A stretch of DNA of 29,000 bases. Source: Promethearchaeati archaeon (GTDB lineage: Archaea; Asgardarchaeota; Heimdallarchaeia; JABLTI01). This document shows, one piece after another, positions 8,894 to 23,597 of the stretch (its first letter is position 1; each line of letters starts with the position of its first letter). Location of the stretch: the NCBI GenBank assembly GCA_013166835.1, contig JABLTI010000026.1, positions 1-29,000 of the forward strand, written 5' to 3'. Both the position numbers and the translations under genes were made by a program. The notes under the pieces are model-generated. The model was not told the DNA's origin and made no database searches. It saw only the letters and a list, made by a program, of their open reading frames with translations.

Positions 8894-10846
8894 TTGGCGT
8901 TCCTGAAGCAAACTAAAGCATTTTCATTTTTCATTATCTTTATGCTAGTTTCACTTTCATTACAAGTTGATTCATATTGGAAAAATCCAGAAAGTCAAAA
9001 TGATGTTGTATATCCTAATACAGTCAAAAACTGGACTATGATGCTTTATTTTTGTGCTGATACACGATCTGATTATGTTACTTCTGATCTAAACAATTCT
9101 GGAAATGGTCTCTATATTGACATGCTTGGTACACTTAATTACCTTGATGATAATCTCCAAGCTGGATCTTCGGATTTCATCAATATAATCGCTTTATTTG
9201 ATTATCCTTGGACAGACTTTCATCCTTACGGTTATGCTGAAATGTATGAGATAACTTCAACTGGCAAAAATCGTATAGCTGAACTTGATCGTACAAATAT
9301 GGGTGATCCGCAAACACTAGAAGATTTCATTACTTTTTGTAAAACGAATTATCCTGCGAATTATTATTCACTATCACTTATTGACCATGGAAGAGGATAC
9401 GCTGGATTTTGCTATGATTATCACGCTACTCATCCTTATTGGGCGTATGCTTTAGGGGATTGTTTAACTGTTCAAGAAATTGACACGGTTCTTGGTAATA
9501 CGGGTGGTGTAGATATTTTATGTTTAGATACCTGCTCAGGCGGATCTTTTGAGGTTAGTTGGCAATTTATAGATGAGGTTGATTATCTTCTTGCAGGAGA
9601 ATCCATGCAATGGAATAATGCGCTGGTTCATTCAGTTGAGATGGCATATAATTTGAGCTGTAATGTTGGTTATACTCCTTTTCAGTTTGCTCAAAGTGCT
9701 TTTGATTGTGCTAAAAAAATACAAGTTTATCCTTGGAATAATGGTGGTCGTTGGAAATCGAATTCCTGGTATGATCTAACTCAGTTTGACGTTCTCGGGG
9801 CATCTCAAAATGTGATGGAAATTTTTAGCGATTTATCTGATTTACTCTTGGACGAGTTGAATCACAATTACACCACAAACAGAGAGCTATTTATTGAAAT
9901 TCGTAATATATCCACGCTAGATGAAAAGGCATTTAGTACGAAATCTATGATGGTGGATCTCTATGATTTTGTCAATAATTTATTGCCTTATTGTGATCAA
10001 TTTTATTATGGAGGTCCCATTGCAACCCTAGGATCTGAACTTTTAACTAAAATAACACCAAACACTGCTGCTATTGTACGGGGCGAAGCTCACGATTCGA
10101 GATATGATGGATTATATGGTTTTAGTGTTTGTTTTCCAGATTCATATGATATGTATCAAGGATATCTTTATCCTAATTTCTATGAAGGATTAGATATTTC
10201 TCTAAACACTAAATGGGATGATTTCATATTACGACTATTTCCACAATTAAATTTTAATATCAATCAATTTGAATTTTGGGAATTTCAGTTGAATCTTATC
10301 GATCCTTCTGTTGGTTTACATGTCTTCTTAGAACATGAAACTCTCATAAATCCCATACACATAGGATTAAATGAATTTGCGGATTTTGGTATGGGTGTAG
10401 AACTTGGCTTAGATGGAGCTGAATTTTATGATGATCTTTTATTTGGTAATTCCATGATTCGCATTCCTTCTGAAAGCTTGAATTCTTTTCTCATGAAAGC
10501 TCCTAGCCCAACTGAAATTACTTTCAAAGTGGTAGTTAATGCCACTGCAGCAGCTAGTGCTAGCCAGATGGTTAATTTAACAGTCAAGCATGTAAATAAT
10601 CAATCAGTGGTTTGGCAAGCAAATAAACTAAGCACCTTTGAAAGAGGGCAAACATTGATTTGTAAAGTTTCTACAAATGAAGAAATTACTGATTTCGAAA
10701 TCATTGATTCCCCATTTGATACTCCTAGAACAATTTTAGGATTACCTCTTAAATGGTTCATAGTCACAGTAGTTGGTTGTGTGGTACTATTAGCAATTAT
10801 ATTCACAATTACCTTTTATTTAAAAAAGAAAAAATCAAGAGTCTAG
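8894..10846 (+). CDS. Clostripain-family (C11) cysteine peptidase, secreted and C-terminally anchored
   Basis: Signal peptide, WTMMLYFCAD, NMGDPQTL, YPANYY.L.L.DHGRG (catalytic His), LDTC (catalytic Cys), C-terminal TM helix plus KKKK tail. Confidence 0.9.
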   Translation: MAFLKQTKAFSFFIIFMLVSLSLQVDSYWKNPESQNDVVYPNTVKNWTMMLYFCADTRSDYVTSDLNNSGNGLYIDMLGTLNYLDDNLQAGSSDFINIIALFDYPWTDFHPYGYAEMYEITSTGKNRIAELDRTNMGDPQTLEDFITFCKTNYPANYYSLSLIDHGRGYAGFCYDYHATHPYWAYALGDCLTVQEIDTVLGNTGGVDILCLDTCSGGSFEVSWQFIDEVDYLLAGESMQWNNALVHSVEMAYNLSCNVGYTPFQFAQSAFDCAKKIQVYPWNNGGRWKSNSWYDLTQFDVLGASQNVMEIFSDLSDLLLDELNHNYTTNRELFIEIRNISTLDEKAFSTKSMMVDLYDFVNNLLPYCDQFYYGGPIATLGSELLTKITPNTAAIVRGEAHDSRYDGLYGFSVCFPDSYDMYQGYLYPNFYEGLDISLNTKWDDFILRLFPQLNFNINQFEFWEFQLNLIDPSVGLHVFLEHETLINPIHIGLNEFADFGMGVELGLDGAEFYDDLLFGNSMIRIPSESLNSFLMKAPSPTEITFKVVVNATAAASASQMVNLTVKHVNNQSVVWQANKLSTFERGQTLICKVSTNEEITDFEIIDSPFDTPRTILGLPLKWFIVTVVGCVVLLAIIFTITFYLKKKKSRV

Positions 10847-12574
10847 ATCTATTACAATACTACCTGCTCTTACTAATTCAACTATTTTGTTTATGTCTGG
10901 ATAGATTATTCTATCATGAACTAATTTTGGAACGACTGATCTGATTGTTTTGTAGGCATTGTATGTTTGTTTTCCTAGTGCTTTTTCGTGAGGAATCTTT
11001 TGTATTTCGCACCTCAAATCTATTGCTTGCACTGCTAACATCATTTCGATGGCAAGAATGTATTGAAGGTTTTCAAGGATTTTCGCTGTTTTTCTTGCTG
11101 CAATTGGGCTCATACTTACATGATCTTCAGCTTCATCAGATGTTGGAATTGAATCTACAGATGCCGGGGCTGATAATACTTTGTTTTCTGATACTAACGC
11201 TGCTGCGGTGTATTGAGGCATCATAAAACCACTATTCAATCCTAATTCACTGCGTGGTATCAAAAAGAGACTTAATCCGTCGTTTCTTTTATCATCGATT
11301 AGTTTTGCGCATCGTCTCTCTGAAATATTGCCTACTTCAGCCATAGCGATTGATAAGTAATCCATAACCATAGCAATCGGTTCACCATGGAAATTACCAC
11401 CAGAGTAAATATCAAATTCTAACGGATCTTTTTTGGTGATAAAAATTAATGGATTATCAGTCGCGGCATTAATTTCTCGAGAAATCGTATCACAGCAATG
11501 TGCCAATGTTTCTCTTACTGGGCCCAATACTTGTGGAGTGCACCTTATAGAGTAGTCATCTTGTATTTTTGGCCACTGCTTTTCAAAATCAGCCTTTGAT
11601 CCACCACAATTTGGACAAATCCAATCATCTGGTAAATTGATAAATTCAGTATTAGGAGGTACATTTTGTGACGCATCACCCATTTTCCTATCATAGTAAT
11701 ACCCACAATTCTCTACTTCACATGTGAATAAACTTTCATGCTTTTTCACAAAGACGCTGCCTTTTGTATAGGACCGAAGGTTTTTAGCTACCTCTATTTG
11801 ACCAGGGTGAAATCGTGCTTGATGGATTCTATCGTCAAATTGTTGACTAGCTGCTTTGAGAGCTTCTAATGATAAGGCTGCAGCAATTTCTGCATTCTTG
11901 ATTAAATTACTTGCTTCGTGTAAAACTATACAGGCTATTCCTGCTGAATATTGAGCGCCATTATTTAGAGCTAAGCCTTCTTTGTATGATAATTTTGTAA
12001 TTGGAATCCCGGCTTTTTGCATGCCTTCTTTAGCATTGTATATTTTTCCCTCAAATTTCAGATTGTTTTCTCCTTCACCAATCATCGCCAAAACCATATG
12101 TGATAGTTGTGCTAAATCTCCACTTGCTCCAACAGATCCTTTTATTGGAATTATTGGTAAGACATTTTTGTTTATCATTTGAACTAGATTTTCTAAAGTT
12201 TTTAATTGGCAGCCAGAATATCCTTGTGCAAGTGCAGTCACCCTTAGAACCATCATAGCTTTGACGAAATCATCTCGAGCAGGTTCCCCAACCCCGACAC
12301 AGTGACTTCTTATCAAATTAGTTTGTAATTTAGTAGCATCTTTTTCAGGAATAACAATATCCCGCAATGCGCCAAAACCAGTAGTAATACCATAGATTTT
12401 TTCCCCTGATTCTACAGCTTTTTCAATAGCTTTTCGAGCTAAAATCACTTTTTCTTTCACATTTTCAGATAGCTTCAACTTGTAATCATTTTTCACAATG
12501 TGAACAACATCTTCCAATGAGAGTCCTTCATTATCAAGAATTACTGTTTCTGGCAAGAGCTTAATCCACTCCAA
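10835..12574 (-). CDS. hutH: Histidine ammonia-lyase, copy 2, with inserted rubredoxin domain
   Basis: YGITTGFG, NLIRSH, GSVGASGDL, IQDDYSIRCTPQ, GGNFHGEP, EDHVSM. In-frame rubredoxin at 11579..11728. Start could be TTG 12556. Confidence 0.93.
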   Translation of the reverse strand: MEWIKLLPETVILDNEGLSLEDVVHIVKNDYKLKLSENVKEKVILARKAIEKAVESGEKIYGITTGFGALRDIVIPEKDATKLQTNLIRSHCVGVGEPARDDFVKAMMVLRVTALAQGYSGCQLKTLENLVQMINKNVLPIIPIKGSVGASGDLAQLSHMVLAMIGEGENNLKFEGKIYNAKEGMQKAGIPITKLSYKEGLALNNGAQYSAGIACIVLHEASNLIKNAEIAAALSLEALKAASQQFDDRIHQARFHPGQIEVAKNLRSYTKGSVFVKKHESLFTCEVENCGYYYDRKMGDASQNVPPNTEFINLPDDWICPNCGGSKADFEKQWPKIQDDYSIRCTPQVLGPVRETLAHCCDTISREINAATDNPLIFITKKDPLEFDIYSGGNFHGEPIAMVMDYLSIAMAEVGNISERRCAKLIDDKRNDGLSLFLIPRSELGLNSGFMMPQYTAAALVSENKVLSAPASVDSIPTSDEAEDHVSMSPIAARKTAKILENLQYILAIEMMLAVQAIDLRCEIQKIPHEKALGKQTYNAYKTIRSVVPKLVHDRIIYPDINKIVELVRAGSIVIDLDS

Positions 12575-12725: not shown

Positions 12726-13043
12726 TTATTGTTTTTGTTTTAATCGTTTTCTTTTAATGAATTCCTTTCCTTTGAAATGTCGATAACATTTCAAATAGGG
12801 TGAAAAATTAGGAGGTATTACTTCTTTGATTTCCATGTCTTTTTCTGATATGATTTTTATTGTACTCGCTCTCTTATGTTTTTCTTCTATCTCCTCTTGA
12901 TATACCTCTTCAGCAAAAATTTCCTCTATAGATTCTTCTTCACTTGTGGTTGAACTCACTTCGTATGCAAATTCCAAAGGTTCTTCAGTATCTTTGGTAT
13001 CCGCTTTATTTTCACTTGTGGTCTCAACTTTCTTGTTTTTCAT
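12726..13043 (-). CDS. Small acidic, low-complexity hypothetical protein; last gene of the SMC/Ubl operon
   Basis: ATGA start/stop overlap with the E2 gene. Glu-rich N-terminal half, TIKIISE motif, basic C-terminus. Confidence 0.7.
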   Translation of the reverse strand: MKNKKVETTSENKADTKDTEEPLEFAYEVSSTTSEEESIEEIFAEEVYQEEIEEKHKRASTIKIISEKDMEIKEVIPPNFSPYLKCYRHFKGKEFIKRKRLKQKQ

Positions 13044-13795
13044 ATTATCCTCACTCCTCCTTTCTTTTCTTCCTCTTTCTCCTCTCGAGGTATGATCTTA
13101 ATAGTTGTTCCTTTATCCTCTGTGACTACTTTCTCTTCACCTTCAGAACCAATAATTCTAATACCACCACTTTCTTTCAAAGATACTTTCTCATGATTAG
13201 CATCCCATTTTGTTAGCATTAGTTTATGGATATTATCAGCGTCTTTCTCAAACCACCTCATTGCAATGGTATTCGTTCCTGAGTCTTCTTTCGGAAAGAG
13301 CTTTGGGGGGCGTATTCTTCTTGGATCCATGAGAATGTGATAAAGAATATCAATGAGTATTCTATCTACTTCCCCATTCACAGTTATACAAGCTTCACCG
13401 TTGCTACCTGTAGATATTCTTGGATGCCATAACCTTGTTATAGCCCTCATTTTGATATGGGAGAGATTTGCTGGATATTCTCGAGGAAGAAAAATTGAGA
13501 ATTTATGATCGTTACTCATATTTAATTGCTTTCTGTTTGCTGATTGTCCTACTAAACCGGGGGTTCTCCTCATTGTGAAGAGGATATCTCGATAAGCACT
13601 ATCTTTGTATTTTCCCTTTATTTCTACAGTGTAATCTTCCTGAACCCATTTGTCCCCTGTGCGTTTTTGTGGTACCCACTTCCACCCTTTCTTTTTGAAG
13701 AAATCTTCCATTGATTCATAGAAAACTGAAATTGATTCAGCTATTCTAGCATTTACTACTGTAGCTGGAAAATATGTTCTCGCTATTTTTTTCAC
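13040..13795 (-). CDS. Ubiquitin-conjugating enzyme E2 (UBC fold) with C-terminal tail
   Basis: FSIFLPREYPA...ITRLWHPRIS...GEAC matches the UBC signature (F-x-YP, HP(N)I, G-x-x-C active Cys). Adjacent to the Ubl and E1 genes. Confidence 0.82.
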   Translation of the reverse strand: MKKIARTYFPATVVNARIAESISVFYESMEDFFKKKGWKWVPQKRTGDKWVQEDYTVEIKGKYKDSAYRDILFTMRRTPGLVGQSANRKQLNMSNDHKFSIFLPREYPANLSHIKMRAITRLWHPRISTGSNGEACITVNGEVDRILIDILYHILMDPRRIRPPKLFPKEDSGTNTIAMRWFEKDADNIHKLMLTKWDANHEKVSLKESGGIRIIGSEGEEKVVTEDKGTTIKIIPREEKEEEKKGGVRII

Positions 13796-13888: not shown

Positions 13889-14200
13889 TTATCCTACTTG
13901 AGCACAAGCGTCTAACTTGAAACGTTCATTTGATTCCAATGCTGGTTCAAGCGAACCAAAGGTTGCAGCAGGTGGCAATGCTGTGTTACCAGTCATTTTT
14001 CTCATCATGATAAAACTAACATTGGGTTGCCCGACCTTTTCCTTAGCCCACTTATTGATATCGACACCTTCATCGATGCATCTTTGTACCAAAGTTTTTA
14101 CAACTTCATCTATTGTTGATTCTTCCTCAACAGCTACACGAAATTCTTTTTGTCTTGGCTCAACATCTATAATGACTTCACGCCATATTTCTTCGCTCAT
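13889..14200 (-). CDS. Ubiquitin-like (beta-grasp) modifier with C-terminal Val-Gly
   Basis: Beta-beta-alpha start (EVIIDV..KEFRVAVEEESTIDEVVKTL). FIMMRK..GNTALPPAATFGSL..LESNERFKL parallels ubiquitin [27 protein letters not shown]. Ends AQVG-stop and lies between E1 and E2. ATG 14200 or GTG 14212. Confidence 0.75.
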   Translation of the reverse strand: MSEEIWREVIIDVEPRQKEFRVAVEEESTIDEVVKTLVQRCIDEGVDINKWAKEKVGQPNVSFIMMRKMTGNTALPPAATFGSLEPALESNERFKLDACAQVG

Positions 14201-14279
14201 TGTTTTGTTCACACCTAAGTTATATTGCTGTTTGATGCTTTCTCAGCATCTTTAGTACTCCATCAGGCTTCTGATGGGG

Positions 14280-15221
14280 TTACCGATCTGAGATTTTATT
14301 TGCCTTTCTTCTTGCCCTACACGTTACATCTACACATTTGGGATTTGGCATAATGTTCGCGAATATCATTTCATGATCACGTAAATCATACCTAATCATT
14401 TTACCGAAATTAGGTTCTTGACCTTTGGTAACATCTGAGTATCCGCCTTTTCCGTCACTACTTACCAATACTTTTGTTGCTTCCACAGACATAATTCCTC
14501 CAACGATTGAAGTTAAAGTGCTAATCATTGGAAATTTTGGCAGTGTTTCCACAAAGAATTCATCACAACTCAGAACCACTTGATGATTCATAATTGCTTG
14601 ATAGTAATCTTCACTCCATAAACACACAGCACAAGCAGTAATTCCCGGATGATAGATTTGGGCTTCTATGAAGGACTTACCCATTGCACCATTAATCATA
14701 GGGACTGTTTTTTCTTGCATTAAATTACCATAATTTAACATGTATCTTGCATAATCATTATCTAATGCCATTATGATTAAATCAACTTGATACACTTCTT
14801 GTGGTGCGTCCTCTATTCGCACTTCATATGGGGTTACTTTTGTGTTAGGAGCTATTTCTGGTAATCTTTCAGCTACTGCATTTACTTTTGAAATGTTCTT
14901 ATGGTCACCTGGTCTGAAGAAAATGCATCTGTTTATGTTAGATTTATTTACAATATCAAAATCAACGAGCTTGATATGTCCTACACCTAGCATTCCCAGG
15001 TTTTTACAAATTTCATTTCCTACAGCTCCGGCTCCTACGCATAAGATAGTACTATTCTTTATTTTTTCTAGATTCGCTTTGCCAAAGTATCTTCTTGTCC
15101 TATCTTCAATATCCTCTTCAAAGAAACCAACACTTAGTAACTCTTTTTCTTTTATAGAACCATGGGATGAATTATCCGATTGGTGAGTACTTTTTTTCTG
15201 TGTTGATTCTCCATCTGGCAA
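14280..15221 (-). CDS. E1-like activating enzyme (ThiF/MoeB/E1 family)
   Basis: VGAGAVG nucleotide-binding motif, DFDIVNKSNINR, ALDN..AR, Zn ligands CAVC and CVDVTC, candidate catalytic Cys in VLSCDE. Confidence 0.93.
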   Translation of the reverse strand: MPDGESTQKKSTHQSDNSSHGSIKEKELLSVGFFEEDIEDRTRRYFGKANLEKIKNSTILCVGAGAVGNEICKNLGMLGVGHIKLVDFDIVNKSNINRCIFFRPGDHKNISKVNAVAERLPEIAPNTKVTPYEVRIEDAPQEVYQVDLIIMALDNDYARYMLNYGNLMQEKTVPMINGAMGKSFIEAQIYHPGITACAVCLWSEDYYQAIMNHQVVLSCDEFFVETLPKFPMISTLTSIVGGIMSVEATKVLVSSDGKGGYSDVTKGQEPNFGKMIRYDLRDHEMIFANIMPNPKCVDVTCRARRKANKISDR

Positions 15222-15238: not shown

Positions 15239-15901
15239 TCATTTTACAGTATATTCGATCCAGTCTACCTCTTTGAGATCTTTTTCGCCATTCTCATTAA
15301 CAACAATATAGGATTTGTAATAATTAGATCTAGGATCAATTAAGACAAACACATTATGTTCAGCATCGTAAGGAAAGTTTAGAAATGTGTTATAATCAGT
15401 CGATGAGAAATGTGGATTGGATCCAAACGGATGAGAATGAAAAATACCGACTATTTTTGGTCGTTCTTCACTTCCACCATACTTTTCTTCTATAATAGTT
15501 GTATATTGTCTAACGCCTTCTGGGGTAAATTCCGCATAAGCATGACTTGAATATGCTTTTCCTGTGACCCAGTCAACAACTTTAACGTACTTCTTTCCTT
15601 TGTATAGATATTTGTACCCAAGTAATATCCCAATTGCTTCATTTGGGTCTGATTTCTTACATAATAGAAATGTTTCGTAAACGACTCTTTGTAAAATATA
15701 AACAGGATAAATGTCTTCTTCTTCTGGATTCCCTATTAATTCTTCTGTTTTTGATTTCTCAGTAATCGTTTTCTCTTGTATCAATTCTTCTTTTCTTTTA
15801 CTTCTTTTTGGAGTTCCTTCAGGCTCTCCTAATAATTTACCAAGATGATTCTTCGGGGTTTCTTTTTGGGAGTCCTTCTTATCTTTCTTCATGTTATCCA
15901 C
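15239..15901 (-). CDS. JAB1/MPN+ (JAMM) metallo-isopeptidase
   Basis: EAIGILLG ... VGIFHSHP....FSSTD is an intact E-HxH-S-D JAMM motif; VLIDP follows. Confidence 0.92.
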   Translation of the reverse strand: MDNMKKDKKDSQKETPKNHLGKLLGEPEGTPKRSKRKEELIQEKTITEKSKTEELIGNPEEEDIYPVYILQRVVYETFLLCKKSDPNEAIGILLGYKYLYKGKKYVKVVDWVTGKAYSSHAYAEFTPEGVRQYTTIIEEKYGGSEERPKIVGIFHSHPFGSNPHFSSTDYNTFLNFPYDAEHNVFVLIDPRSNYYKSYIVVNENGEKDLKEVDWIEYTVK

Positions 15902-15917: not shown

Positions 15918-16403
15918 TTACCCAATTTTTTCCCATGTGATGAACTTACCTCGCCTTCTCTTTGTCATTACGAAACCAAAGGAAGACCAGATTTCTTCTT
16001 GGATTTTGGGAGGTTCGAGACTTAGCTCATCGTCTTTATCCTCTTCTTCTGCTTTCTTCTCCACAGCAGCGTAAAAAGGCATGAAGCCCATTTGTTCATC
16101 TTCAAAGAACAATGTCTCTAACAAACCACCAGTTATTCCTTCTGACTTGTTGGATTCAACAAATAGCATGACTTCTTCAATTGGAATTGGTCCAGGACTT
16201 AATTGATGTCTATCAATTCCAAAGATGAAGGATGGACAAGCTCCCGCCATTTTCAAATCGAATTCCTGAATGCATTTTGGGCATATGAATGTTCTACAAA
16301 TTCGACACATTCGCCAACCAACATCAATAGCTTCCCTTAAGGTAGCACGACCATTATGTCCTGCACAACGAATTGATACTGTTGAAGTTGTTATTACAGC
16401 CAT
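15918..16403 (-). CDS. RING-like zinc-finger protein (candidate E3, Nse1-RING-like)
   Basis: CAGH...GWRMCRICRTFICPKC..F.....CP...H gives eight potential ligands in RING-like spacing. Sits between the KITE and JAMM genes. Confidence 0.6.
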   Translation of the reverse strand: MAVITTSTVSIRCAGHNGRATLREAIDVGWRMCRICRTFICPKCIQEFDLKMAGACPSFIFGIDRHQLSPGPIPIEEVMLFVESNKSEGITGGLLETLFFEDEQMGFMPFYAAVEKKAEEEDKDDELSLEPPKIQEEIWSSFGFVMTKRRRGKFITWEKIG

Positions 16404-16427: not shown

Positions 16428-17054
16428 TTAGAGCAACATTCCCTCAGTTCTATCGGCGATTTCCTTCCTTCTTTCTGGTGCAATCTCTATCTTCGTTCTA
16501 GCACCGTATCGTATCTTGTTCCCACCTCTCCTAATATAACCTGCAGAAACTAAGGTTCGTAAAATTCTTGTTAAGGAGTATTCTGAATAATAACCTCGTT
16601 TCACTAAACGATCGAAAAGGATGGTTGAAGTTATAGGAATTTCCTCTCGTCTTCGATGATCGGTAGTTTTCTCTATTAGATAAATTATTGTCCCAAGAAC
16701 AGCTTGTTCATCCAATGATAATTCGTTTGGAACAACATAGATAGATCGCAAGCAATACCAAACTTCATTATCAACTACATATGAAATTAATTCTAATCCA
16801 AGTCGCTTCACATTTCTTCCAAAATCTTCTAATAAAGTCTCAAGCTCGAGAAGTGTTAAACCTGTTTTATTTCTTAAATGCCTTTTAGATACCCCAAAAG
16901 CCAATGAGTCATTTTCCATACGTCGTCTGGAAGTTAAAGCAAGGAATAATTGAGGGTCAATCTCTCCGAAATCTTCCTCTAATTTTTCTCTTACGTTATT
17001 AATGGATCTTTTTTCAACTTGTTCTTCATCACTATTTGATTGATTTTCAATCAT
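16428..17054 (-). CDS. KITE-family tandem winged-helix protein (Nse1/Nse3-MAGE/ScpB-like)
   Basis: LGLEL...WYCL and E..VLGTII.LI...L..LVSAGYI....IRYGART.IE resemble Nse1/MAGE WH-A and WH-B (compare WGPRA..E). Size and position downstream of SMC and kleisin fit. Confidence 0.65.
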   Translation of the reverse strand: MIENQSNSDEEQVEKRSINNVREKLEEDFGEIDPQLFLALTSRRRMENDSLAFGVSKRHLRNKTGLTLLELETLLEDFGRNVKRLGLELISYVVDNEVWYCLRSIYVVPNELSLDEQAVLGTIIYLIEKTTDHRRREEIPITSTILFDRLVKRGYYSEYSLTRILRTLVSAGYIRRGGNKIRYGARTKIEIAPERRKEIADRTEGMLL

Positions 17055-17075
17055 TTTTCAACCTTCTATTAATCA

Positions 17076-17939
17076 TTATTTTCTTGTTTTTCTTGGAGTA
17101 ATTACAATTGATTGATTTACAAGATCAAGCTCATCTATCCTCTCAGAAGCAGTTTGCACAGGAATAATTTCAATTGAATCTTTTCCTGTTCGCAAAAGCA
17201 TAATTTGCTTTTCTCTTACTAAGAGTGATATCAAATCAGCGGAAATACTGTCAATTTTGCTTTCAAGTTCAGAAATTTTGAATTGCTTTCCACCAAACTT
17301 TTTCAAGAATTCTTTTTTCAAAGATTCCTTTTGCTCTTTCGTCAATTTGCGTAATGGTAGCGATTCCATGATCGCTATGCCTTTCCCCTCTAGAATTTCA
17401 TCTTCAACGAGGAGTTCTTTCTCGTCTCCTTCAATAATCTGTACTCCACCAACATCATGTAGATTAAACATATCCATATCCAGCGTATTATCTCCTGGCA
17501 TAAACATAATGGCTTTAGTACGTATCTTCACTTCCCATGCAATCATACGTAAACGATCTCTTTCGGTAGTTCCCTCTAAAGCTATTTTCGTATCTCTAGT
17601 TCTTTGCATCTTGGTGAGAGATTGGTATACTCGAGCATCTAATTGTTTGTGTCTATTACTGGCAATGTGTAGGTAAGCATCTGATACTTCTATTCGATCC
17701 TCTTCACTTTCAGCTATTTGTGGAACAGTTCCTTTTTCTAACAAAGTCTTGTATTTCTTTGCGACACTCCACAATAATTTCTCAATCCCATCACTAGTTT
17801 GTTTTTTCTTGGGATCATTTTTCTGCTTATCCGGATTATCATTTGGTTTTAATTTGTTAGAAGATTTCTCACTGTCTTCTTCATTTGTTGATTCCGAAGT
17901 GGATATTTCTATTTCAATATCATTATTGTCTTCTAACAT
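17076..17939 (-). CDS. Putative kleisin (Nse4/ScpA-like) subunit
   Basis: Overlaps the SMC stop by 17 nt. Helical N-terminal region, acidic linker, and a C-terminal winged-helix-like segment ISLLVREKQIML reminiscent of Nse4 SFLVRDG. The call relies heavily on context. Confidence 0.5.
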   Translation of the reverse strand: MLEDNNDIEIEISTSESTNEEDSEKSSNKLKPNDNPDKQKNDPKKKQTSDGIEKLLWSVAKKYKTLLEKGTVPQIAESEEDRIEVSDAYLHIASNRHKQLDARVYQSLTKMQRTRDTKIALEGTTERDRLRMIAWEVKIRTKAIMFMPGDNTLDMDMFNLHDVGGVQIIEGDEKELLVEDEILEGKGIAIMESLPLRKLTKEQKESLKKEFLKKFGGKQFKISELESKIDSISADLISLLVREKQIMLLRTGKDSIEIIPVQTASERIDELDLVNQSIVITPRKTRK

Positions 17940-20922
17940 GTTCAGCTTTTACCACCTTCATCTCAGAAACAACCATGTGATGGATATTATCTGATACATC
18001 AACGTCTAAAGCATCAGGACAAAGCAGAATAAATTGAGGAACAAAGCGAGAATTTTCTCCAGCTAGTTTTTGTGTTCTTACTGCTATACTGAATGCTAAT
18101 GCTTTATTTTTCTCGTCTAATCTCTGTGTGAATTCATCAATAGCATGGATTGGTGAATCCGTTAGAGTATGCATTGCTAAAATGAGCCCTTCAATTGCTA
18201 GGACTTTCTCTCCTCCGCTTAGTTCTCGAAAATCACGATAGGCCTTCCCTTTAGTAATCGCTTCTATGTATAATCCTGCATCTTCTGGTTTATTGATGTT
18301 AGTTACTTTCAATCTTACTTTCTCAAATATTCCTCCTAATAGGAGTTTCATCGAACGTGTGATATTTGTAATAACTTCTTGTAGCTCCCCATTCCAAAAT
18401 GCTAATCTAGCTTCTAAATCTGCACGTAAATTAGTAATATGCTCCTCTCTTTCAACCATATAAACCTTCAAAGATTCAACTTTCACTTTTTGAGCATCTA
18501 TTTTATCTTCATCTACATTACTGATTCCGATTGAATCTAAATGCCCTTCAATTCGGTTTAACTCATCCCTTATTTCAGTATAATTTCTAATTTCTTCTGG
18601 TCGTTCCCCTTTCTGCTTTGCTTGTTCCTCTCTTTCATTTTTTTCTTGTAAATGAGTTTCATATTCAGAATCAAAGTTTAACTCGAGTGTGAGAAGCCGT
18701 GTAGATTTCTCAACTAAACTATGAGATTCTATTCGAAGCAATTCAATTGTTTCATTTATATCCTCAATATTTCTTTTTACTTCATTCTTTTTTATGAAAT
18801 AAGTAGCAAAATCATCATCAGCTTCATCGAGTTCAAGTTTCAATCCATTCTGATGTATTTTGTATTCCTGTGTTTTCGCTTCGATTGTAGCGATGATTTC
18901 ATTTATGGTTTCAATTTTACCCAAGATTTTTTCATCAGGCATACCTAATGCTTGAATTTCTTGATGCAGCTTTGTTATTTCTTTTAGGGTTTTTATTTCA
19001 TCGATTTTTAAATCGCGTGTTTCTTTTTCTAATCGTGCGATTGCAACTCGTGTTTTCCTTTCATTAATTATGGTCGTGAATTGCTTTTCTTCTGATGCTT
19101 TTATCTTCCAACCAAAAGGATTCTTCATTGGTGCAGGTGGTCTTCCGAATCCTCCATGTGATAAATAGTAGCTTTTTCCTGATTTTGTTAGGATATTAAT
19201 ACGGGAATCCCTAGCGATATTTGTTAAAGTATTTGGATCATATTTATCCTCAGCAACACCAGCTTTCACTACTCTTTTCAGAAAGCCTAATGCATAAGGA
19301 TTACCAGATAGGAGATTACTGGCAATATCATTAACTTCTTTGTATGGAGGTTTTTTGAGCATTTCAGATGCTTTTTTGGCATCTTCAGCAGTTACTTTGT
19401 ATACAGAAATTGGGGGTTTCCATCGAGGCCATGTCTCATCATACAATCTTTTTGCAAATCTATAACCCTCATCTGTCTTAGCTAAAAAGGCATAAAGATT
19501 TCGACCGATGAGATTTTTAACAGCATTTCTCCAAGTTTCTTTTCCCTCTTTAATATCGATTAAGGAAATTATTGGTCCGATGATTTCTTTGTCCATAGAT
19601 TGTTTTCTAATTTTATGATAGAAAATTTTCGCAGAATTTGTTAGGTCTTCTTCAAACTTTGTTAAGCGTTGTCCGGAATAGGTTTCTTCGTCTGAAGAAA
19701 ATGAATCAAAATGTGGTTCAACAATTATTCTCCTTCTGTGAATGAGGAGTTCTTTATCTGCATTGGAGTATTTTTCTTGAATCATGGATAACTTTTTTGT
19801 TTTTATTATCAGAGCTTCTTGTCTATCTTGGAGTTTTCTATCCTTTTCACTTAGATTCTTAGTGGCAATGATTTTTTCCATTTCATTTTTTTGTTCGTTA
19901 TATCGTTCAATCTCTTTTCCAAAATTCTCGATATTTTCTTGATCGTTTTGGATTTGAGTTTCTAATGTGATCAACTTTCTATTCTTTATTCGTTCTTGTT
20001 CTTCTACTAATTCTAATTCTTCCTTCAAAACTTGTAATCTATTATTTGTTAAATCAATTTCAGATTTCTTTTTACTTATCGCTTGTTCATTCTCACTTTT
20101 TTGCTTTACAATTGTTAATCGCTGCTTATTTACCCCATCTAATTGTTTCTCTAATCGAGTCACAGATGACCAAGCAAGTTCTGTTTCCAATTTTGTTTTC
20201 ATTATCATTAGTTTCTTCTTTTGATTTAGAATCTTCATTGCATCGTTCCAAAGGTTTAGCAATTTACTTTCAGTTTCATACTTTCTTTTTAATGGTTCAA
20301 TCTCTTGAATGCTTGCTTTTAGTGTCTCTTGAGAGGTTATTACCTCTTCTCGATATTGTTTTAGTCCTGTTACTTCTAAGAGAACTTCCAATTTTCTCTT
20401 GGGACTTTTTGAAGCAAAATCATCTACAGTTCCTTCCCCTGTAAATGCTAATTTATTATCACCGCGAACTCCAATTGATTCAAAGACTCTTCTAACATCT
20501 CGTCTTGTAACCAATCTTCCCCGAATAATTCTTCTTGAGTTATTAATACTATATGTAACGGAACTATCATCCCGGGATATTTTAGCTGTGACCTTAAATG
20601 TATCAAAATCTATCACTGAATTCAAATCTTTATCCAAAGTATGAATTGCTCTTCGACCATTTATGATTGGGTTAGCTATTTCTAATGTAATTGTAGAAAA
20701 ATCATCATTTTTCCCAACTAAACTACCAACACCCTTTGCTTTTGCTCTAGCAGGAATATGTCCGATGCATAAGGTTAATCCATCTAGCACTTGTGTTTTT
20801 CCAGAACCATTTGCTCCTGTAATCAATGAAATAGCTTCTTTAGCTAAATCCACTACTGTGAATTCGTGAAGCATTAGGTTTTCCATGGTTATTTTTTGGA
20901 ATAGTTTAGCTTTTCCATTCAT
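17923..20922 (-). CDS. smc: SMC-family ATPase, SMC5/6-like
   Basis: Walker A GANGSGKT, long coiled coils, central hinge IIGPIISLI......W..AV..LIG..L.AF, signature LSGGEK, Walker B/D-loop SPIHAIDEFTQRLD. 999 aa, with no Rad50 CxxC hook. Confidence 0.9.
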   Translation of the reverse strand: MNGKAKLFQKITMENLMLHEFTVVDLAKEAISLITGANGSGKTQVLDGLTLCIGHIPARAKAKGVGSLVGKNDDFSTITLEIANPIINGRRAIHTLDKDLNSVIDFDTFKVTAKISRDDSSVTYSINNSRRIIRGRLVTRRDVRRVFESIGVRGDNKLAFTGEGTVDDFASKSPKRKLEVLLEVTGLKQYREEVITSQETLKASIQEIEPLKRKYETESKLLNLWNDAMKILNQKKKLMIMKTKLETELAWSSVTRLEKQLDGVNKQRLTIVKQKSENEQAISKKKSEIDLTNNRLQVLKEELELVEEQERIKNRKLITLETQIQNDQENIENFGKEIERYNEQKNEMEKIIATKNLSEKDRKLQDRQEALIIKTKKLSMIQEKYSNADKELLIHRRRIIVEPHFDSFSSDEETYSGQRLTKFEEDLTNSAKIFYHKIRKQSMDKEIIGPIISLIDIKEGKETWRNAVKNLIGRNLYAFLAKTDEGYRFAKRLYDETWPRWKPPISVYKVTAEDAKKASEMLKKPPYKEVNDIASNLLSGNPYALGFLKRVVKAGVAEDKYDPNTLTNIARDSRINILTKSGKSYYLSHGGFGRPPAPMKNPFGWKIKASEEKQFTTIINERKTRVAIARLEKETRDLKIDEIKTLKEITKLHQEIQALGMPDEKILGKIETINEIIATIEAKTQEYKIHQNGLKLELDEADDDFATYFIKKNEVKRNIEDINETIELLRIESHSLVEKSTRLLTLELNFDSEYETHLQEKNEREEQAKQKGERPEEIRNYTEIRDELNRIEGHLDSIGISNVDEDKIDAQKVKVESLKVYMVEREEHITNLRADLEARLAFWNGELQEVITNITRSMKLLLGGIFEKVRLKVTNINKPEDAGLYIEAITKGKAYRDFRELSGGEKVLAIEGLILAMHTLTDSPIHAIDEFTQRLDEKNKALAFSIAVRTQKLAGENSRFVPQFILLCPDALDVDVSDNIHHMVVSEMKVVKAEHVRRQ

Positions 20923-21287: not shown

Positions 21288-23597
21288 TTATTTTCTCTTT
21301 CTAGCTGTTAAAATCACACTGGTTAATCCAATTGTGCTTAAAACTATCCATGCAGCAAAAGGAATTCCAAATGGGAAGGTAAAGCCATTAGTTGGTGTAC
21401 CTGTTTTTGTTGCTTCTGCTGAAAGAGTAAAACTACCAGATCCAGAGACTCGTTTAACCACAATATAGACTGTCTTGTTGTTTGCAGGTGTGTAAAGGAT
21501 ATTTTCGGGCACTCCCGCTGTTGCTGTAGTACTACTCGCCAAAATTGCTGAAGCTGAGGTTACATCTACTGAGGGATCATACAAGTAAAGATCATAGTCA
21601 GCAGTTCCATCCATTTCAATACCAGCTGTAAACTCAATTAATTCAACTAATTCTACTTTTCGAGCCCAGCTTTGCATGCTAGTCGGTGAACTACTAAGTG
21701 ATTCAGTTACATTAGTTCCAGCGGTATATGTTGAGAGGAATGCTTCAATCGCTGCATCACCGTGTACTTTGCCAAAACCTTCAACTAAATCTCTTGCGCC
21801 TCTATTCAAGGTAGGAGGATTACTATAAACATCCACTACTTCACCATACCGAACTTCTGTTGCGGTTCCGCAGAGAATATTCTTTATGTAAAGCACGTTT
21901 GCTTCTGTATGAGTCCAATCTGTTCCCATGGCTTCTATCATTAATGCTGCTAAGCCAGCTACATGAGGAGTAGCCATACTGGTTCCCTGAAATGCTATGT
22001 AATCATCTGTATTTAGTTCAGTTTCCCAATAAGTGGATGGGGATCCTGATGAGAAATCAATAACATCTTTATCATTTGTGTCAGCAGCAACTATTGGATG
22101 AGTATTTTCATCTGCCCCTATGGGATCTTTGTATGCTCCACCAGGAGCCAAAATATCGGGTTTACCTGTTCCGGTGTCACCATTTGAGGAATAAATTGCT
22201 ACTTTATCAACATCATCAATGGCTCCAACGGTTATTGCTTTACTTGCTGTACCAGGGGAATAAATAAAATCACCATCTGTATGACCATTACCAGCAGCTG
22301 CCACACATACATATCCTAAAGAAACAAGATTGTTTATTGCAGTATCTACTGCTGAAATTTCCGAATCAAAACCTAAGGACATACTTACTACTGCTATATT
22401 ATAAGTATCACCATTAGCATTTATCCAATCTAAAGCATCAGTAAATTCTGTTTGAGAGCCAATTCCTGAATCATCTAAAGCTTTCAAAGCAACGATTTCA
22501 CAACCAGGTGCAACACCTCGATATTTATTGTTTCCATCAGATGTTGAAGAAGCAGGACGAGTAATTTTGTATTGAACTTTTGCTCTCGCAATTTCTGAGG
22601 AGGGTTCTCCTCCTTCATATGGTCCAATTATGTATTGATATTTTCCTGGGGAAAGAGTTCCAGATGTAAAAGTCAATGGTGTTACACCAGTACCATAATC
22701 TTGAGTTATTATATCCTCAAAACCAGCAGCTAATGGATTTGAATCAAATGCAAGAAACAAAGTATCTGTTGGACTATCTGGGGTATCTGTTTCATCCCAC
22801 CAAATTTCGAATGATACAGTTCCTGAAGTTTCCACTTCTACATGGCTTATTAAGCCATATAGTTCATTTAAGTGAGGTAAGCCAAGTGTTGCTGATATTT
22901 CCACATTTGCTGCAGTTCCAGCACCTGCACCTGATCCAGCTGCGATACTTGAAACATGAGTCCCATGGCCACTCCAATCAGTTGCAGTTCCATATTCATC
23001 ACTTCCAACAAAAGCATCATGTCCAATGAAATCTTCCCAATGTGAGATTCTTCCAGTGAAATCTGGATGGGTGTCATCAATTCCTGTATCTATAATTGCA
23101 ATAGCGTCACTTACATCTCCCTCAAAACCTAAGGTATCCCAAACATAGGGTCGAACATTTATTTGGGGAACGCTTGTACTCAGCATTGTTTTACATTTAT
23201 AGTTCTCTGTCACAAAATTGACTCCCGGGATCGCTGCTAAAGCACCTATTTGTGTTCCTTTAATTCTAACTGCAGCACCATGAATTACAGACCAAGAACT
23301 AACTATGATACCATCTAGTGATTCAATGCTGTTTCTAATCATGTCATTTAGAGGTGTATCAAAAGTGACGACTGTTGTATAGTATTCACTCTCAAATCCA
23401 TTGCTTACTATGTTCTCTAAATGGTCATGAACTTTATTTTTATTCAAATCCAAACTTGTATCTTGTTTCACAAGTGGATTGAAAGTGCTTACTTCTATTG
23501 GGACATCGGGTAGTTGGGCAGATGCATATGACCCAAATGCCAATGGCAATAAGAAGAAGCTAAAAAAGATAAGAGCATGCATTTTTTTGTTAATCAT
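21288..23597 (-). CDS. S8 subtilisin-like serine protease, secreted and C-terminally anchored
   Basis: Signal peptide, I9-like prodomain, IIDTGID (Asp), HGTHVSS (His), AAGN, GTSMATPHV (Ser), PPC-like DYDLYLY domain, C-terminal TM plus RKRK. Confidence 0.95.
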   Translation of the reverse strand: MINKKMHALIFFSFFLLPLAFGSYASAQLPDVPIEVSTFNPLVKQDTSLDLNKNKVHDHLENIVSNGFESEYYTTVVTFDTPLNDMIRNSIESLDGIIVSSWSVIHGAAVRIKGTQIGALAAIPGVNFVTENYKCKTMLSTSVPQINVRPYVWDTLGFEGDVSDAIAIIDTGIDDTHPDFTGRISHWEDFIGHDAFVGSDEYGTATDWSGHGTHVSSIAAGSGAGAGTAANVEISATLGLPHLNELYGLISHVEVETSGTVSFEIWWDETDTPDSPTDTLFLAFDSNPLAAGFEDIITQDYGTGVTPLTFTSGTLSPGKYQYIIGPYEGGEPSSEIARAKVQYKITRPASSTSDGNNKYRGVAPGCEIVALKALDDSGIGSQTEFTDALDWINANGDTYNIAVVSMSLGFDSEISAVDTAINNLVSLGYVCVAAAGNGHTDGDFIYSPGTASKAITVGAIDDVDKVAIYSSNGDTGTGKPDILAPGGAYKDPIGADENTHPIVAADTNDKDVIDFSSGSPSTYWETELNTDDYIAFQGTSMATPHVAGLAALMIEAMGTDWTHTEANVLYIKNILCGTATEVRYGEVVDVYSNPPTLNRGARDLVEGFGKVHGDAAIEAFLSTYTAGTNVTESLSSSPTSMQSWARKVELVELIEFTAGIEMDGTADYDLYLYDPSVDVTSASAILASSTTATAGVPENILYTPANNKTVYIVVKRVSGSGSFTLSAEATKTGTPTNGFTFPFGIPFAAWIVLSTIGLTSVILTARKRK

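Follow-up and report, generated by a model that had tools for sequence, protein, structure and literature searches.

What is bound by three short motifs that recur in the C-terminal tail of an archaeal protein resembling ubiquitin-conjugating enzymes (E2s)? The question is raised by a locus on contig JABLTI010000026.1 of a Promethearchaeati archaeon (assembly GCA_013166835.1; Asgardarchaeota, Heimdallarchaeia), positions 1 to 29,000 of which constitute the window analyzed here. On the minus strand of this window, the gene for the E2-like protein lies beside genes for a ubiquitin-like protein (Ubl), a small protein of 105 amino acids (aa), an E1-like adenylyltransferase and a JAB/MPN peptidase. 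The comparisons described below bear out the motifs themselves and part of their earlier interpretation, in that the tail motifs are conserved docking peptides, shaped like SUMO-interacting motifs (SIMs), in a genuine Ubl-conjugation locus; a partner (tentatively the Ubl), multivalent binding and a role in chain building would be inferences beyond these results.

The E2-like protein and its three tail motifs

Homologues of the E2-like protein were sought among 5.8 billion clustered proteins, where 27 of 433 candidates matched at E ≤0.001. A close set of 25 sequences was aligned, comprising the window protein and 24 of these homologues (identity down to 48%); three fragments of 200, 177 and 165 aa (P0024, P0025 and P0027, respectively) were left out. 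The AlphaFold2 model of the protein was built on this alignment. The wider family was collected by a profile search of 1.84 billion representatives at a threshold of E 0.001, aligned as 24 sequences (23 chosen distant relatives and the window protein) and surveyed in 400 genomes from the phylum to which the host belongs. The protein and the elements of its tail are as follows.

13040..13795, minus strand: E2-like protein, 251 aa, GTG start (open reading frame and translation, Pfam, AlphaFold2, Foldseek)
13043..13183, minus strand: disordered, charged C-terminal tail of this protein, residues 205–251, with three motifs (model confidence, drift of the linkers)
13151..13168, minus strand: motif 1, GGIRII, residues 210–215, followed by GSEGEE (I212 and I214 invariant; residue 215 I, V, L or M in 25 of 25 sequences)
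13091..13108, minus strand: motif 2, TTIKII, residues 230–235, followed by PREEKEEE (residues 232, 234 and 235 I, V, L or M in 25 of 25)
13043..13060, minus strand: motif 3, GGVRII, residues 246–251, at the exact C-terminus (I250 invariant; C-terminal in 25 of 25)

The translation, which ends KESGGIRIIGSEGEEKVVTEDKGTTIKIIPREEKEEEKKGGVRII-stop, comprises a UBC-like core (approximately residues 10–205) with H124-P125-R126 and Cys136, and a disordered tail (residues 205–251). The Pfam model UQ_con (PF00179) matched residues 97–139 only (E 9.6e-4) with a score of 19.2 bits, which is under the 27-bit cut-off; thus, the protein is a divergent relative rather than a canonical member of that family. 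In a genome-wide scan with PF00179, two other loci matched and the window protein was not among the matches. The AlphaFold2 model of the core, with predicted local distance difference test (pLDDT) values mostly of 80–97, has the α/β fold of UBC domains, and the matches listed from a Foldseek search of the PDB were all UBC E2s (Ubc13, Ube2G2, UbcH10 and others; E from 1.6e-4, TM to target 0.45–0.55). An HPN-type motif in which Arg replaces Asn (H124-P125-R126) and the predicted catalytic Cys (C136) were invariant in the 25 close sequences, and each of these four residues was at least 90% conserved in the 24-sequence alignment of the wider family. By its modeled fold and predicted catalytic residues, the protein is a member of the UBC superfamily, without reaching the curated family score.

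In agreement with the earlier note on this DNA, which had described three motifs in the tail, the cores IRII (residues 212–215, 13151–13162), IKII (residues 232–235, 13091–13102) and VRII (residues 248–251, 13043–13054) were found exactly where that note had placed them. When the 47-residue tail was shuffled 200,000 times, three matches to the strict pattern [IV][RK]I[IVLM] were never obtained, and two were obtained in 242 shuffles. With one flanking position more, i.e., [GSTA][IV][RK]I[IVLM], a scan of the genome gave 157 matches in 6,901 open reading frames of at least 60 aa, among which that of the window E2 was the sole one with at least three. The three-copy array is far beyond chance. 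No tail is present on the canonical 155-aa E2 that this genome also encodes, nor does its UEV-like protein (ubiquitin E2 variant) show such a motif array.

The repetition is not evident in the DNA. Thus, the codons of the three motif copies differ and no direct repeat of at least 12 nt was noted in 12990–13230, which indicates that the repetition is kept at the protein level. The sole array reported by Tandem Repeats Finder (9 nt, 2.1 copies, 13066–13085) falls in the second linker, and duplication at the DNA level as the source of the three copies was rejected on the basis of these repeat searches.

Within the close set, the nine aliphatic motif positions were I, V, L or M in all 25 sequences whereas linker positions were hydrophobic in 0–28%. 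The mean fraction of the top residue was 0.92, 0.69 and 0.84 for the three motifs as opposed to 0.38 and 0.55 for the two linkers, which vary in both sequence and length, with start-to-start spacings of 17–20 and 16–28 residues between successive motifs. The source labels of the 27 homologues included several of Heimdallarchaeota or Asgard origin, one of Thorarchaeota and one of Zixibacteria.

The wider family is rare, as indicated by only 52 proteins at E ≤0.001 among the 1.84 billion representatives. Most of the more distant relatives end in one to three copies of a basic-aliphatic-x-aliphatic-aliphatic sequence that is followed by D or E or by the C-terminus itself. A count of strict copies requires a sequence anchor, which could be placed in 28 of 50 distant representatives, the other 22 being fragments or too divergent. 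At least one strict copy was present in 15 of these 28 (one copy in 12, two in two and three in one), and the 13 without a strict copy included several with near-variants and about six without a tail. Among ten distant relatives, few of which carry names, one cluster was labeled Planctomycetota. In the genome survey, the family was found in 32 of the 400 genomes. The loci compared below are held by four Asgard families, designated f1, f7, f8 and f12, in which the E2 was present in 9 of 11, 2 of 2, 1 of 1 and 19 of 19 genomes, respectively; it was not found in the rest, e.g., in 0 of 135 genomes of family f20. Of the E2 tails from 17 f12 loci, two contained one strict copy; the other 15 contained two, between which a variant form, P-[RQK]-[IV]-L, is conserved. 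The conservation of the motifs in orthologues, which the earlier note had proposed as a check, was thereby borne out, with three copies in every close homologue and mostly one to three in distant relatives.

The last motif is C-terminal in the close set and followed by D or E in other families, so that a negative charge after the core is kept in both forms. The earlier description of the flanks as acidic holds for this side of the motif, where acidic residues or the C-terminal carboxylate follow the core, but not for the other, where basic residues or Gly precede it and render the charge bipolar. Taken together, rigid aliphatic cores, drifting linkers and a negative charge after the core are, as judged from sequence, the hallmark of short linear motifs for docking, which would bind as added β-strands.

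By a published loose definition, a SIM consists of a four-residue core with at least three V, I or L residues and a neighboring acidic stretch, which in parallel SIMs comes after this core; the groove that accepts it on SUMO has also been described (PMC12751080). Each of the tail cores (IRII, IKII and VRII) contains three aliphatic residues, and acidic neighbors are provided by GSEGEE, by PREEKEEE and by the C-terminal carboxylate, as well as by runs of D and E in f12, although the basic N-terminal flank is atypical. The tail is also predicted to be disordered. Thus, the pLDDT of residues 210–251 was below 50 in the E2 model (34–37 in successive 10-residue blocks from residue 211), the tail was not docked onto the core of the monomer and the linkers are variable. 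At the sequence level the motif therefore fits the definition, and we regard it as a predicted docking peptide of SIM shape. The other well-known class of Ubl-binding peptide, the LC3-interacting region (LIR) or Atg8-interacting motif, has the core consensus [WFY]xx[LIV] with an aromatic residue in first position. No aromatic residue was present at any core position in the three window motifs or in the 24 homologues; thus, the motif is not a LIR.

The modifier, the wider locus and further copies of the motif

The other elements of the locus are listed below in order of position.

12726..13043, minus strand: small acidic/basic protein, 105 aa, whose ATG overlaps the stop codon of the E2 gene (ATGA)
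13889..14200, minus strand: Ubl, 103 aa from an MSEE start (the listed open reading frame begins at a GTG at 14212), ending ...AQVG (AlphaFold2, fold searches)
14280..15221, minus strand: E1-like adenylyltransferase, 313 aa, ThiF domain at residues 45–296 (Pfam ThiF, E 3.7e-40)
15239..15901, minus strand: JAB/MPN peptidase, 220 aa (Pfam Prok-JAB, E 2.1e-8, above the cut-off; PADLOC JAB models)
15918..16403, minus strand: Cys-rich Zn-ribbon-like protein, 161 aa, without the motif (C13, C33, C36, C44, C56 and H66 invariant)
16428..20922, minus strand: linked module resembling a structural maintenance of chromosomes (SMC) complex (SMC matches, synteny, weak winged-helix matches), with the next three genes
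16428–17054, minus strand: winged-helix-like protein, 208 aa (weak MarR_2 matches in 6 of 7 members)
17076–17939, minus strand: 287-aa protein in the kleisin position (synteny, alignment)
17923–20922, minus strand: SMC-like ATPase, 999 aa (SMC matches)

Proteins other than the E2 also carry the motif. A fourth copy, STIKII, followed by SEKD, is present in the 105-aa protein (residues 60–65, 12849–12866), whose acidic N-terminal half, in which EFAYEVSS is conserved, is succeeded by the motif, a conserved PPNFSP (12798–12815) and a Lys/Arg-rich C-terminus. Among 23 database homologues of this protein, IKII was kept in all 23 and PPNxxP in 21. Its gene is located 3' of the E2 gene in the loci read from f1, f7, f8 and f12 wherever flanking sequence suffices, and neither Pfam nor PADLOC nor NCBIfam gave a family for the protein. 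A Zn-ribbon protein of 130 aa (P0099), paralogous to the 161-aa protein and encoded in f12 downstream of the small protein, contains two copies of the motif in its tail. Motif-like sites were also noted in the 287-aa protein, namely GGVQIIEGDE (17421–17450) and KGIAIMES (17361–17384), in five of five f1 sequences; in two aligned f12 versions the first site is deleted and the second is partly kept (RIAL). As a candidate, the C-terminal GFVMT...GKFITWEKIG segment of the 161-aa Zn-ribbon protein in the window was rejected, this segment being conserved in f12 orthologues with a different character. The presence of the motif on the E2, the 105-aa protein and the Zn-ribbon paralogue indicates a docking peptide that is common to the system, and its presence on three non-homologous proteins of one locus points to a shared hub. 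A reader-type contact with such a hub fits the spread of the motif better than a contact specific to the E2. The original view, of an E2 tail that serves chain building, is thus too narrow.

The Ubl was modeled by AlphaFold2 with a pLDDT of 84.7 and the β-β-α-α-β-β-β order of a β-grasp, and Ubl folds were at the top of both fold searches (Foldseek and VIA-align). V102 and G103 were invariant in 25 Ubl sequences, of which 14 end at this Gly and 11 continue for one to three variable residues, so that proteolytic maturation is implied in the latter lineages. The protein therefore has the features of a conjugatable modifier, i.e., a β-grasp fold, an exposed or exposable C-terminal Gly and genes for an E1, an E2 and an isopeptidase alongside. 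The 103-aa sequence matched no Pfam family, including those of ubiquitin and SUMO. In the Foldseek ranking, SUMO1 was first (E 1.3e-4, in SUMO1/SIM complexes), followed by ubiquitin and Caldiarchaeum ubiquitin (3.6e-4). Against 48,161 chains, VIA-align gave SUMO1 a Z of 9.5, tied with many other Ubl domains, among them those of EccD, kindlin, FAT10 and parkin (Z 9.5–10.7). A specific likeness to SUMO was dropped as an argument, the order of the Foldseek ranking not being upheld by these ties. Of the SUMO-like logic that had been proposed for this system, the part that concerns the motif agrees with published descriptions of SIMs; the Ubl has a generic ubiquitin-type fold that is not demonstrably SUMO-like.

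The most conserved stretch of the Ubl includes the β1-β2 turn and the β2 edge strand, where V13, E14, P15, R16 and F20 are invariant and Q17, K18, E19 and R21 are at least 90% conserved. In eukaryotic Ubls, this is the region to which SIMs and LIRs add a strand. Prediction of a complex between the Ubl and E2 residues 200–251 gave scores of 0.01 and 0.00 compared with a mark of 0.32, in a run without controls, and counts neither for nor against binding.

Components of a ubiquitin system are encoded elsewhere in the same genome, on contigs C194, C197 and C110, and include a canonical ubiquitin (PF00240, 50.4 bits), the canonical 155-aa E2 (PF00179, 113 bits) and the UEV-like protein (256 aa, without a catalytic Cys). 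The system in the window is thus a second, divergent Ubl pathway. Within it, the E1 scored under the respective cut-offs of all ThiF, MoeB and SAMP-E1 models in NCBIfam. The 161-aa Cys-rich protein matched no family in Pfam, PADLOC or NCBIfam, and its best Atlas score (0.77) was uninformative. As a separate observation, this protein ends ...WEKIG, with Gly last, in five of five f1 sequences, and two f12 orthologues end ...WEKVGTT and ...WEKILF; the Gly end recalls the V-G end of the Ubl, although not consistently.

The 999-aa protein gave a phmmer match to a prokaryotic Smc head (7e-13) and full-length alignments with Smc6 (1e-8 to 1e-7). Kleisin and kite identities for the 287- and 208-aa proteins were not established, given that Pfam returned nothing at E 0.01 and PDB profiles gave no matches at E 1, and scans of the genome with ScpA and ScpB models found no match in the window. 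Leads for these two proteins were limited to the weak MarR_2 matches and to Atlas scores that were all below 0.9 (winged helix 0.89, MAGE 0.80, MksE/DUF4194 0.78–0.80). The same genome also encodes a canonical SMC (802 bits), a canonical ScpB and a Rad50-like protein, the gene for which is preceded by an open reading frame of Mre11 size; thus, the module in the window would be an extra SMC-type complex that is coupled to Ubl conjugation.

The arrangement of these genes differs between families. In f1, the SMC module and the genes for the Cys-rich protein, JAB, E1, Ubl and E2 are collinear, with the whole set present in six of nine places and the other three cut by contig ends. In f12, this set of genes is likewise found side by side in 11 of 11 loci, although arranged differently and divergently, with E1 and JAB within approximately 4 kb of the Ubl. 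In f8, the genes for the Ubl, E2 and small protein are on one contig while those for the E1 and the 208-aa orthologue are approximately 1 kb apart on another. Consequently, the Ubl, E2 and small protein form the sole trio that is adjacent in all four families, the E1, JAB and SMC module of f8 being elsewhere. The E1, JAB and SMC module are nevertheless present in the genomes of f7, f8 and f12, and since all were found in every family checked, presence or absence has no discriminating power as a test of the motif partner.

Some additional genes were noted beside the small protein. In the f12 cassette (e.g., L050:7423-9413, minus strand), the Zn-ribbon paralogue is followed by a protein of approximately 260–534 aa, the core of which resembles transglutaminases (matched weakly in NCBIfam, E 3.5e-5), and in f7 and f8 a large open reading frame with transglutaminase-like sequence follows the small protein. 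Neither a transglutaminase-like gene nor one for a Zn-ribbon paralogue is present at that position in the window.

Candidate partners of the motif

The partner that we favor, as a reading that is quite possible though somewhat short of probable, is the operon's own Ubl, bound in the manner of a SIM or LIR. The tail would then be a disordered array of three docking motifs, whose consensus is G-[IV]-[RK]-I-[IVL] with negative charge after it; each motif would most likely contribute a β-strand to an edge strand that lies exposed on the partner they share. The Ubl might be met in free form, in thioester linkage to Cys136 or attached to a target, and in each case the E2 would hold its own modifier by its own tail. 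In this way the tail could, like the two SIMs that suffice for the E3 activity of ZNF451 (PMC12751080), position the donor Ubl such that discharge needs no separate E3, or it could retain the E2 on modified targets and so allow the addition of further Ubls. The small protein and the f12 Zn-ribbon paralogue may be recruited to the same Ubl through their copies of the motif. The partner, the mode of β-augmentation and any effect on catalysis are what we infer.

The Ubl is favored as the hub because its gene is part of the only trio that stays adjacent in all four families, because its most conserved stretch is the β1-β2 turn and β2 edge strand and because the motif fits the loose SIM definition, including the acidic residues that, like those of parallel SIMs, come behind the core. 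Precedents for such contacts also exist. Thus, human ATG3 carries a LIR (PMC10214526) and the E1 UBA5 carries a UFM1-interacting sequence (UIS) (PMC5428781), each of which is a Ubl-binding peptide in a flexible region of a cascade enzyme that matters for catalysis, and ZNF451 carries the SIMs referred to above. Several points weigh against the Ubl as partner. No result obtained here shows contact between the tail and the Ubl. Unlike most SIMs, the motif is basic at the x position of its core and in its N-terminal flank (KKGG-VRII, GR-VRIL), and the Ubl is net acidic, so that the electrostatics differ from those of SUMO-SIM pairs. Moreover, the Ubl has the generic ubiquitin-type fold rather than one specific to SUMO, its conserved β1-β2 region could equally serve the binding of E1, E2 or JAB, the presence of every candidate hub in every family checked is uninformative and the motif-like sites of the 287-aa protein in f1 point as much to the SMC complex as to the Ubl.

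The last of these points bears on an alternative, possible but unlikely, in which the motifs would attach the E2, and the other proteins that carry them, to the SMC-like complex through its ATPase, the 287-aa protein, the 208-aa protein or the Zn-ribbon protein, such that the conjugation machinery would be brought to this complex or to its DNA substrate. The proximity of the module to the Ubl, E2, E1 and JAB genes in both f1 and f12 despite differing gene orders is in keeping with this alternative, as is the short distance between the genes for the E1 and the 208-aa orthologue in f8. If, in addition, the 287-aa protein contacts its winged-helix partner through these two sites, the same docking site could serve the E2 tail. 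However, f12 E2 tails keep their motifs although the f12 287-aa protein has lost the first site and retains only part of the second, and the putative kleisin and kite identities of the 287- and 208-aa proteins lack a Pfam ScpA or ScpB match and a PDB profile match. The E1 is another candidate, and a distinctly unlikely one. Here the motifs would recruit the E2 to its own E1, a bare ThiF adenylation domain, in the reverse of the arrangement by which a peptide in the tail of UBA5 binds UFC1. The ThiF domain, at residues 45–296 of 313, leaves no room for a ubiquitin-fold domain, which would therefore be absent, and the UFM1 system offers an example of E1-E2 docking through a short linear motif (PMC8481289). 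Against this are the copies of the motif on the small protein and the Zn-ribbon paralogue, neither of which is an E2, the presence of three copies where one docking site would need only one and the separation of the f8 E1, on another contig, from an intact Ubl, E2 and small protein trio.

Two further alternatives would dispense with both the Ubl and these other hubs. It is very unlikely that strand-to-strand pairing of the motifs joins E2, small protein and Zn-ribbon paralogue into an oligomer or condensate. Identical short β-prone motifs on the products of adjacent genes, together with multivalent, disordered and charged linkers, are what such pairing would use, but a four-residue core with a charged middle and with Gly, Pro and charge in its flanks would be expected to disfavor stable cross-strand stacking. 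A tail that folds back to contact its own E2 core, whether on the backside or in the active-site cleft, with an autoinhibitory or self-activating effect, is highly improbable. Some eukaryotic E2s have C-terminal extensions that act on the E2 itself, which gives this alternative a parallel; in the AlphaFold2 model, however, residues 210–251 are left undocked with a pLDDT of 34–37, which is weak evidence, and the motif also occurs on proteins that have no UBC core.

Related systems, implications and flanking genes

Tandem SIMs such as those of RNF4 and ZNF451 resemble the tail motifs in having a core of the form [IV]-x-I-[IVL], in occurring as several copies in a row within a disordered region and in being carried by components of the modifier's own pathway (PMC12751080). 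They differ in that the array described here is on the E2 itself and not on an E3 or reader, that the x position and N-terminal flank are basic and that the system is archaeal with a putative partner Ubl that has no match to the SUMO family. The ATG3 LIR and UBA5 UIS are likewise short peptides in a flexible region of a cascade enzyme, for which binding to the cognate Ubl has been shown, whereas the archaeal E2 has three copies rather than one and has them at the C-terminus.

Among prokaryotic systems, the Caldiarchaeum and Asgard ubiquitin operons (ubiquitin, E1, E2, small RING protein and Rpn11) have in common with the window a Ubl, E1- and E2-like proteins and a JAB/Rpn11-type peptidase (PMC5654768, PMC6043591). 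In contrast with those operons, the locus in the window is a divergent second system with a Zn-ribbon protein in place of a recognized RING protein and with a linked SMC-like module. Operons of the Bil/Bub type and CBASS operons with Cap2 and Cap3 also combine a prokaryotic E1, E2, Ubl and JAB (PMC12687455), and one chain of a bacterial E1-E2-Ubl complex (8tyz_B) was among the tied structural matches of the Ubl (Z 9.3, VIA-align). At the domain level, the E1 matched PADLOC E1-E2 models in their E1 part only (best E 3.8e-19) and the JAB protein matched JAB models (1.3e-7), and there were no hits for E2, Ubl, small protein or Zn-ribbon protein. Since the PADLOC matches were limited to E1 and JAB domains, the locus is not a recognized defense system. 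Unlike a defense island, which would be patchy, it is syntenic across whole genera, and the available text of PMC12687455 describes no motif-bearing tail for Bil/Bub or CBASS.

The Smc5/6 complex with its SUMO ligase Nse2, which itself bears SIMs, offers a further comparison, in that an SMC-type complex is coupled to Ubl conjugation and that proteins of the pathway carry SIM-like peptides (PMC8636563). Here, in contrast, the coupling is by gene neighborhood, any kinship of the SMC-like protein with Smc5/6 is at most putative and no SP-RING was detected.

According to a recent review (PMC12687455), no prokaryotic Ubl system found so far shares the SIM groove of SUMO, and it is not known at what stage ubiquitin and SUMO parted. 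A literature search that took in neither subscription journals nor supplements found no description of this E2 family, its tail or its linkage to an SMC module. There is a slim chance that the locus is an Asgard counterpart of the SUMO pathway, i.e., a second Ubl that is read through SIM-like motifs on its own E2 and accessory proteins and is coupled to a non-canonical SMC complex. If so, both SIM-type recognition and a link between SMC complexes and Ubl ligases, as in Smc5/6-Nse2-SUMO, would predate eukaryotes. The host belongs to the archaeal group closest to eukaryotes and has, in addition to canonical ubiquitin, a divergent system of Ubl, E1, E2 and JAB with a rigidly conserved peptide of SIM shape. 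Should the Ubl be the partner, the reading of a modifier by short motifs would be older than eukaryotes; should it be the SMC-like complex, Ubl conjugation would be aimed at a chromosome-organizing machine in archaea. Each of these outcomes would be novel, and a few small recombinant proteins would be enough to put the choice between partners to a direct test.

Three other genes flank the locus. A histidine/aromatic ammonia-lyase is encoded at 10835–12574 on the minus strand (Lyase_aromatic, E 2.7e-179), with a rubredoxin domain inserted at residues 283–330 (E 1.8e-16); it is directly 3' of the small protein in all f1 loci, and a second paralogue (32–36% identical) is nearby in several. At 8894–10846 on the plus strand is a 650-aa protein of the clostripain family (Peptidase_C11) with a C-terminal hydrophobic segment, which is syntenic in f1. 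On the other side, at 21288–23597 on the minus strand, a 769-aa subtilase-like protein is encoded, the gene for which is syntenic with the locus in f1 relatives.

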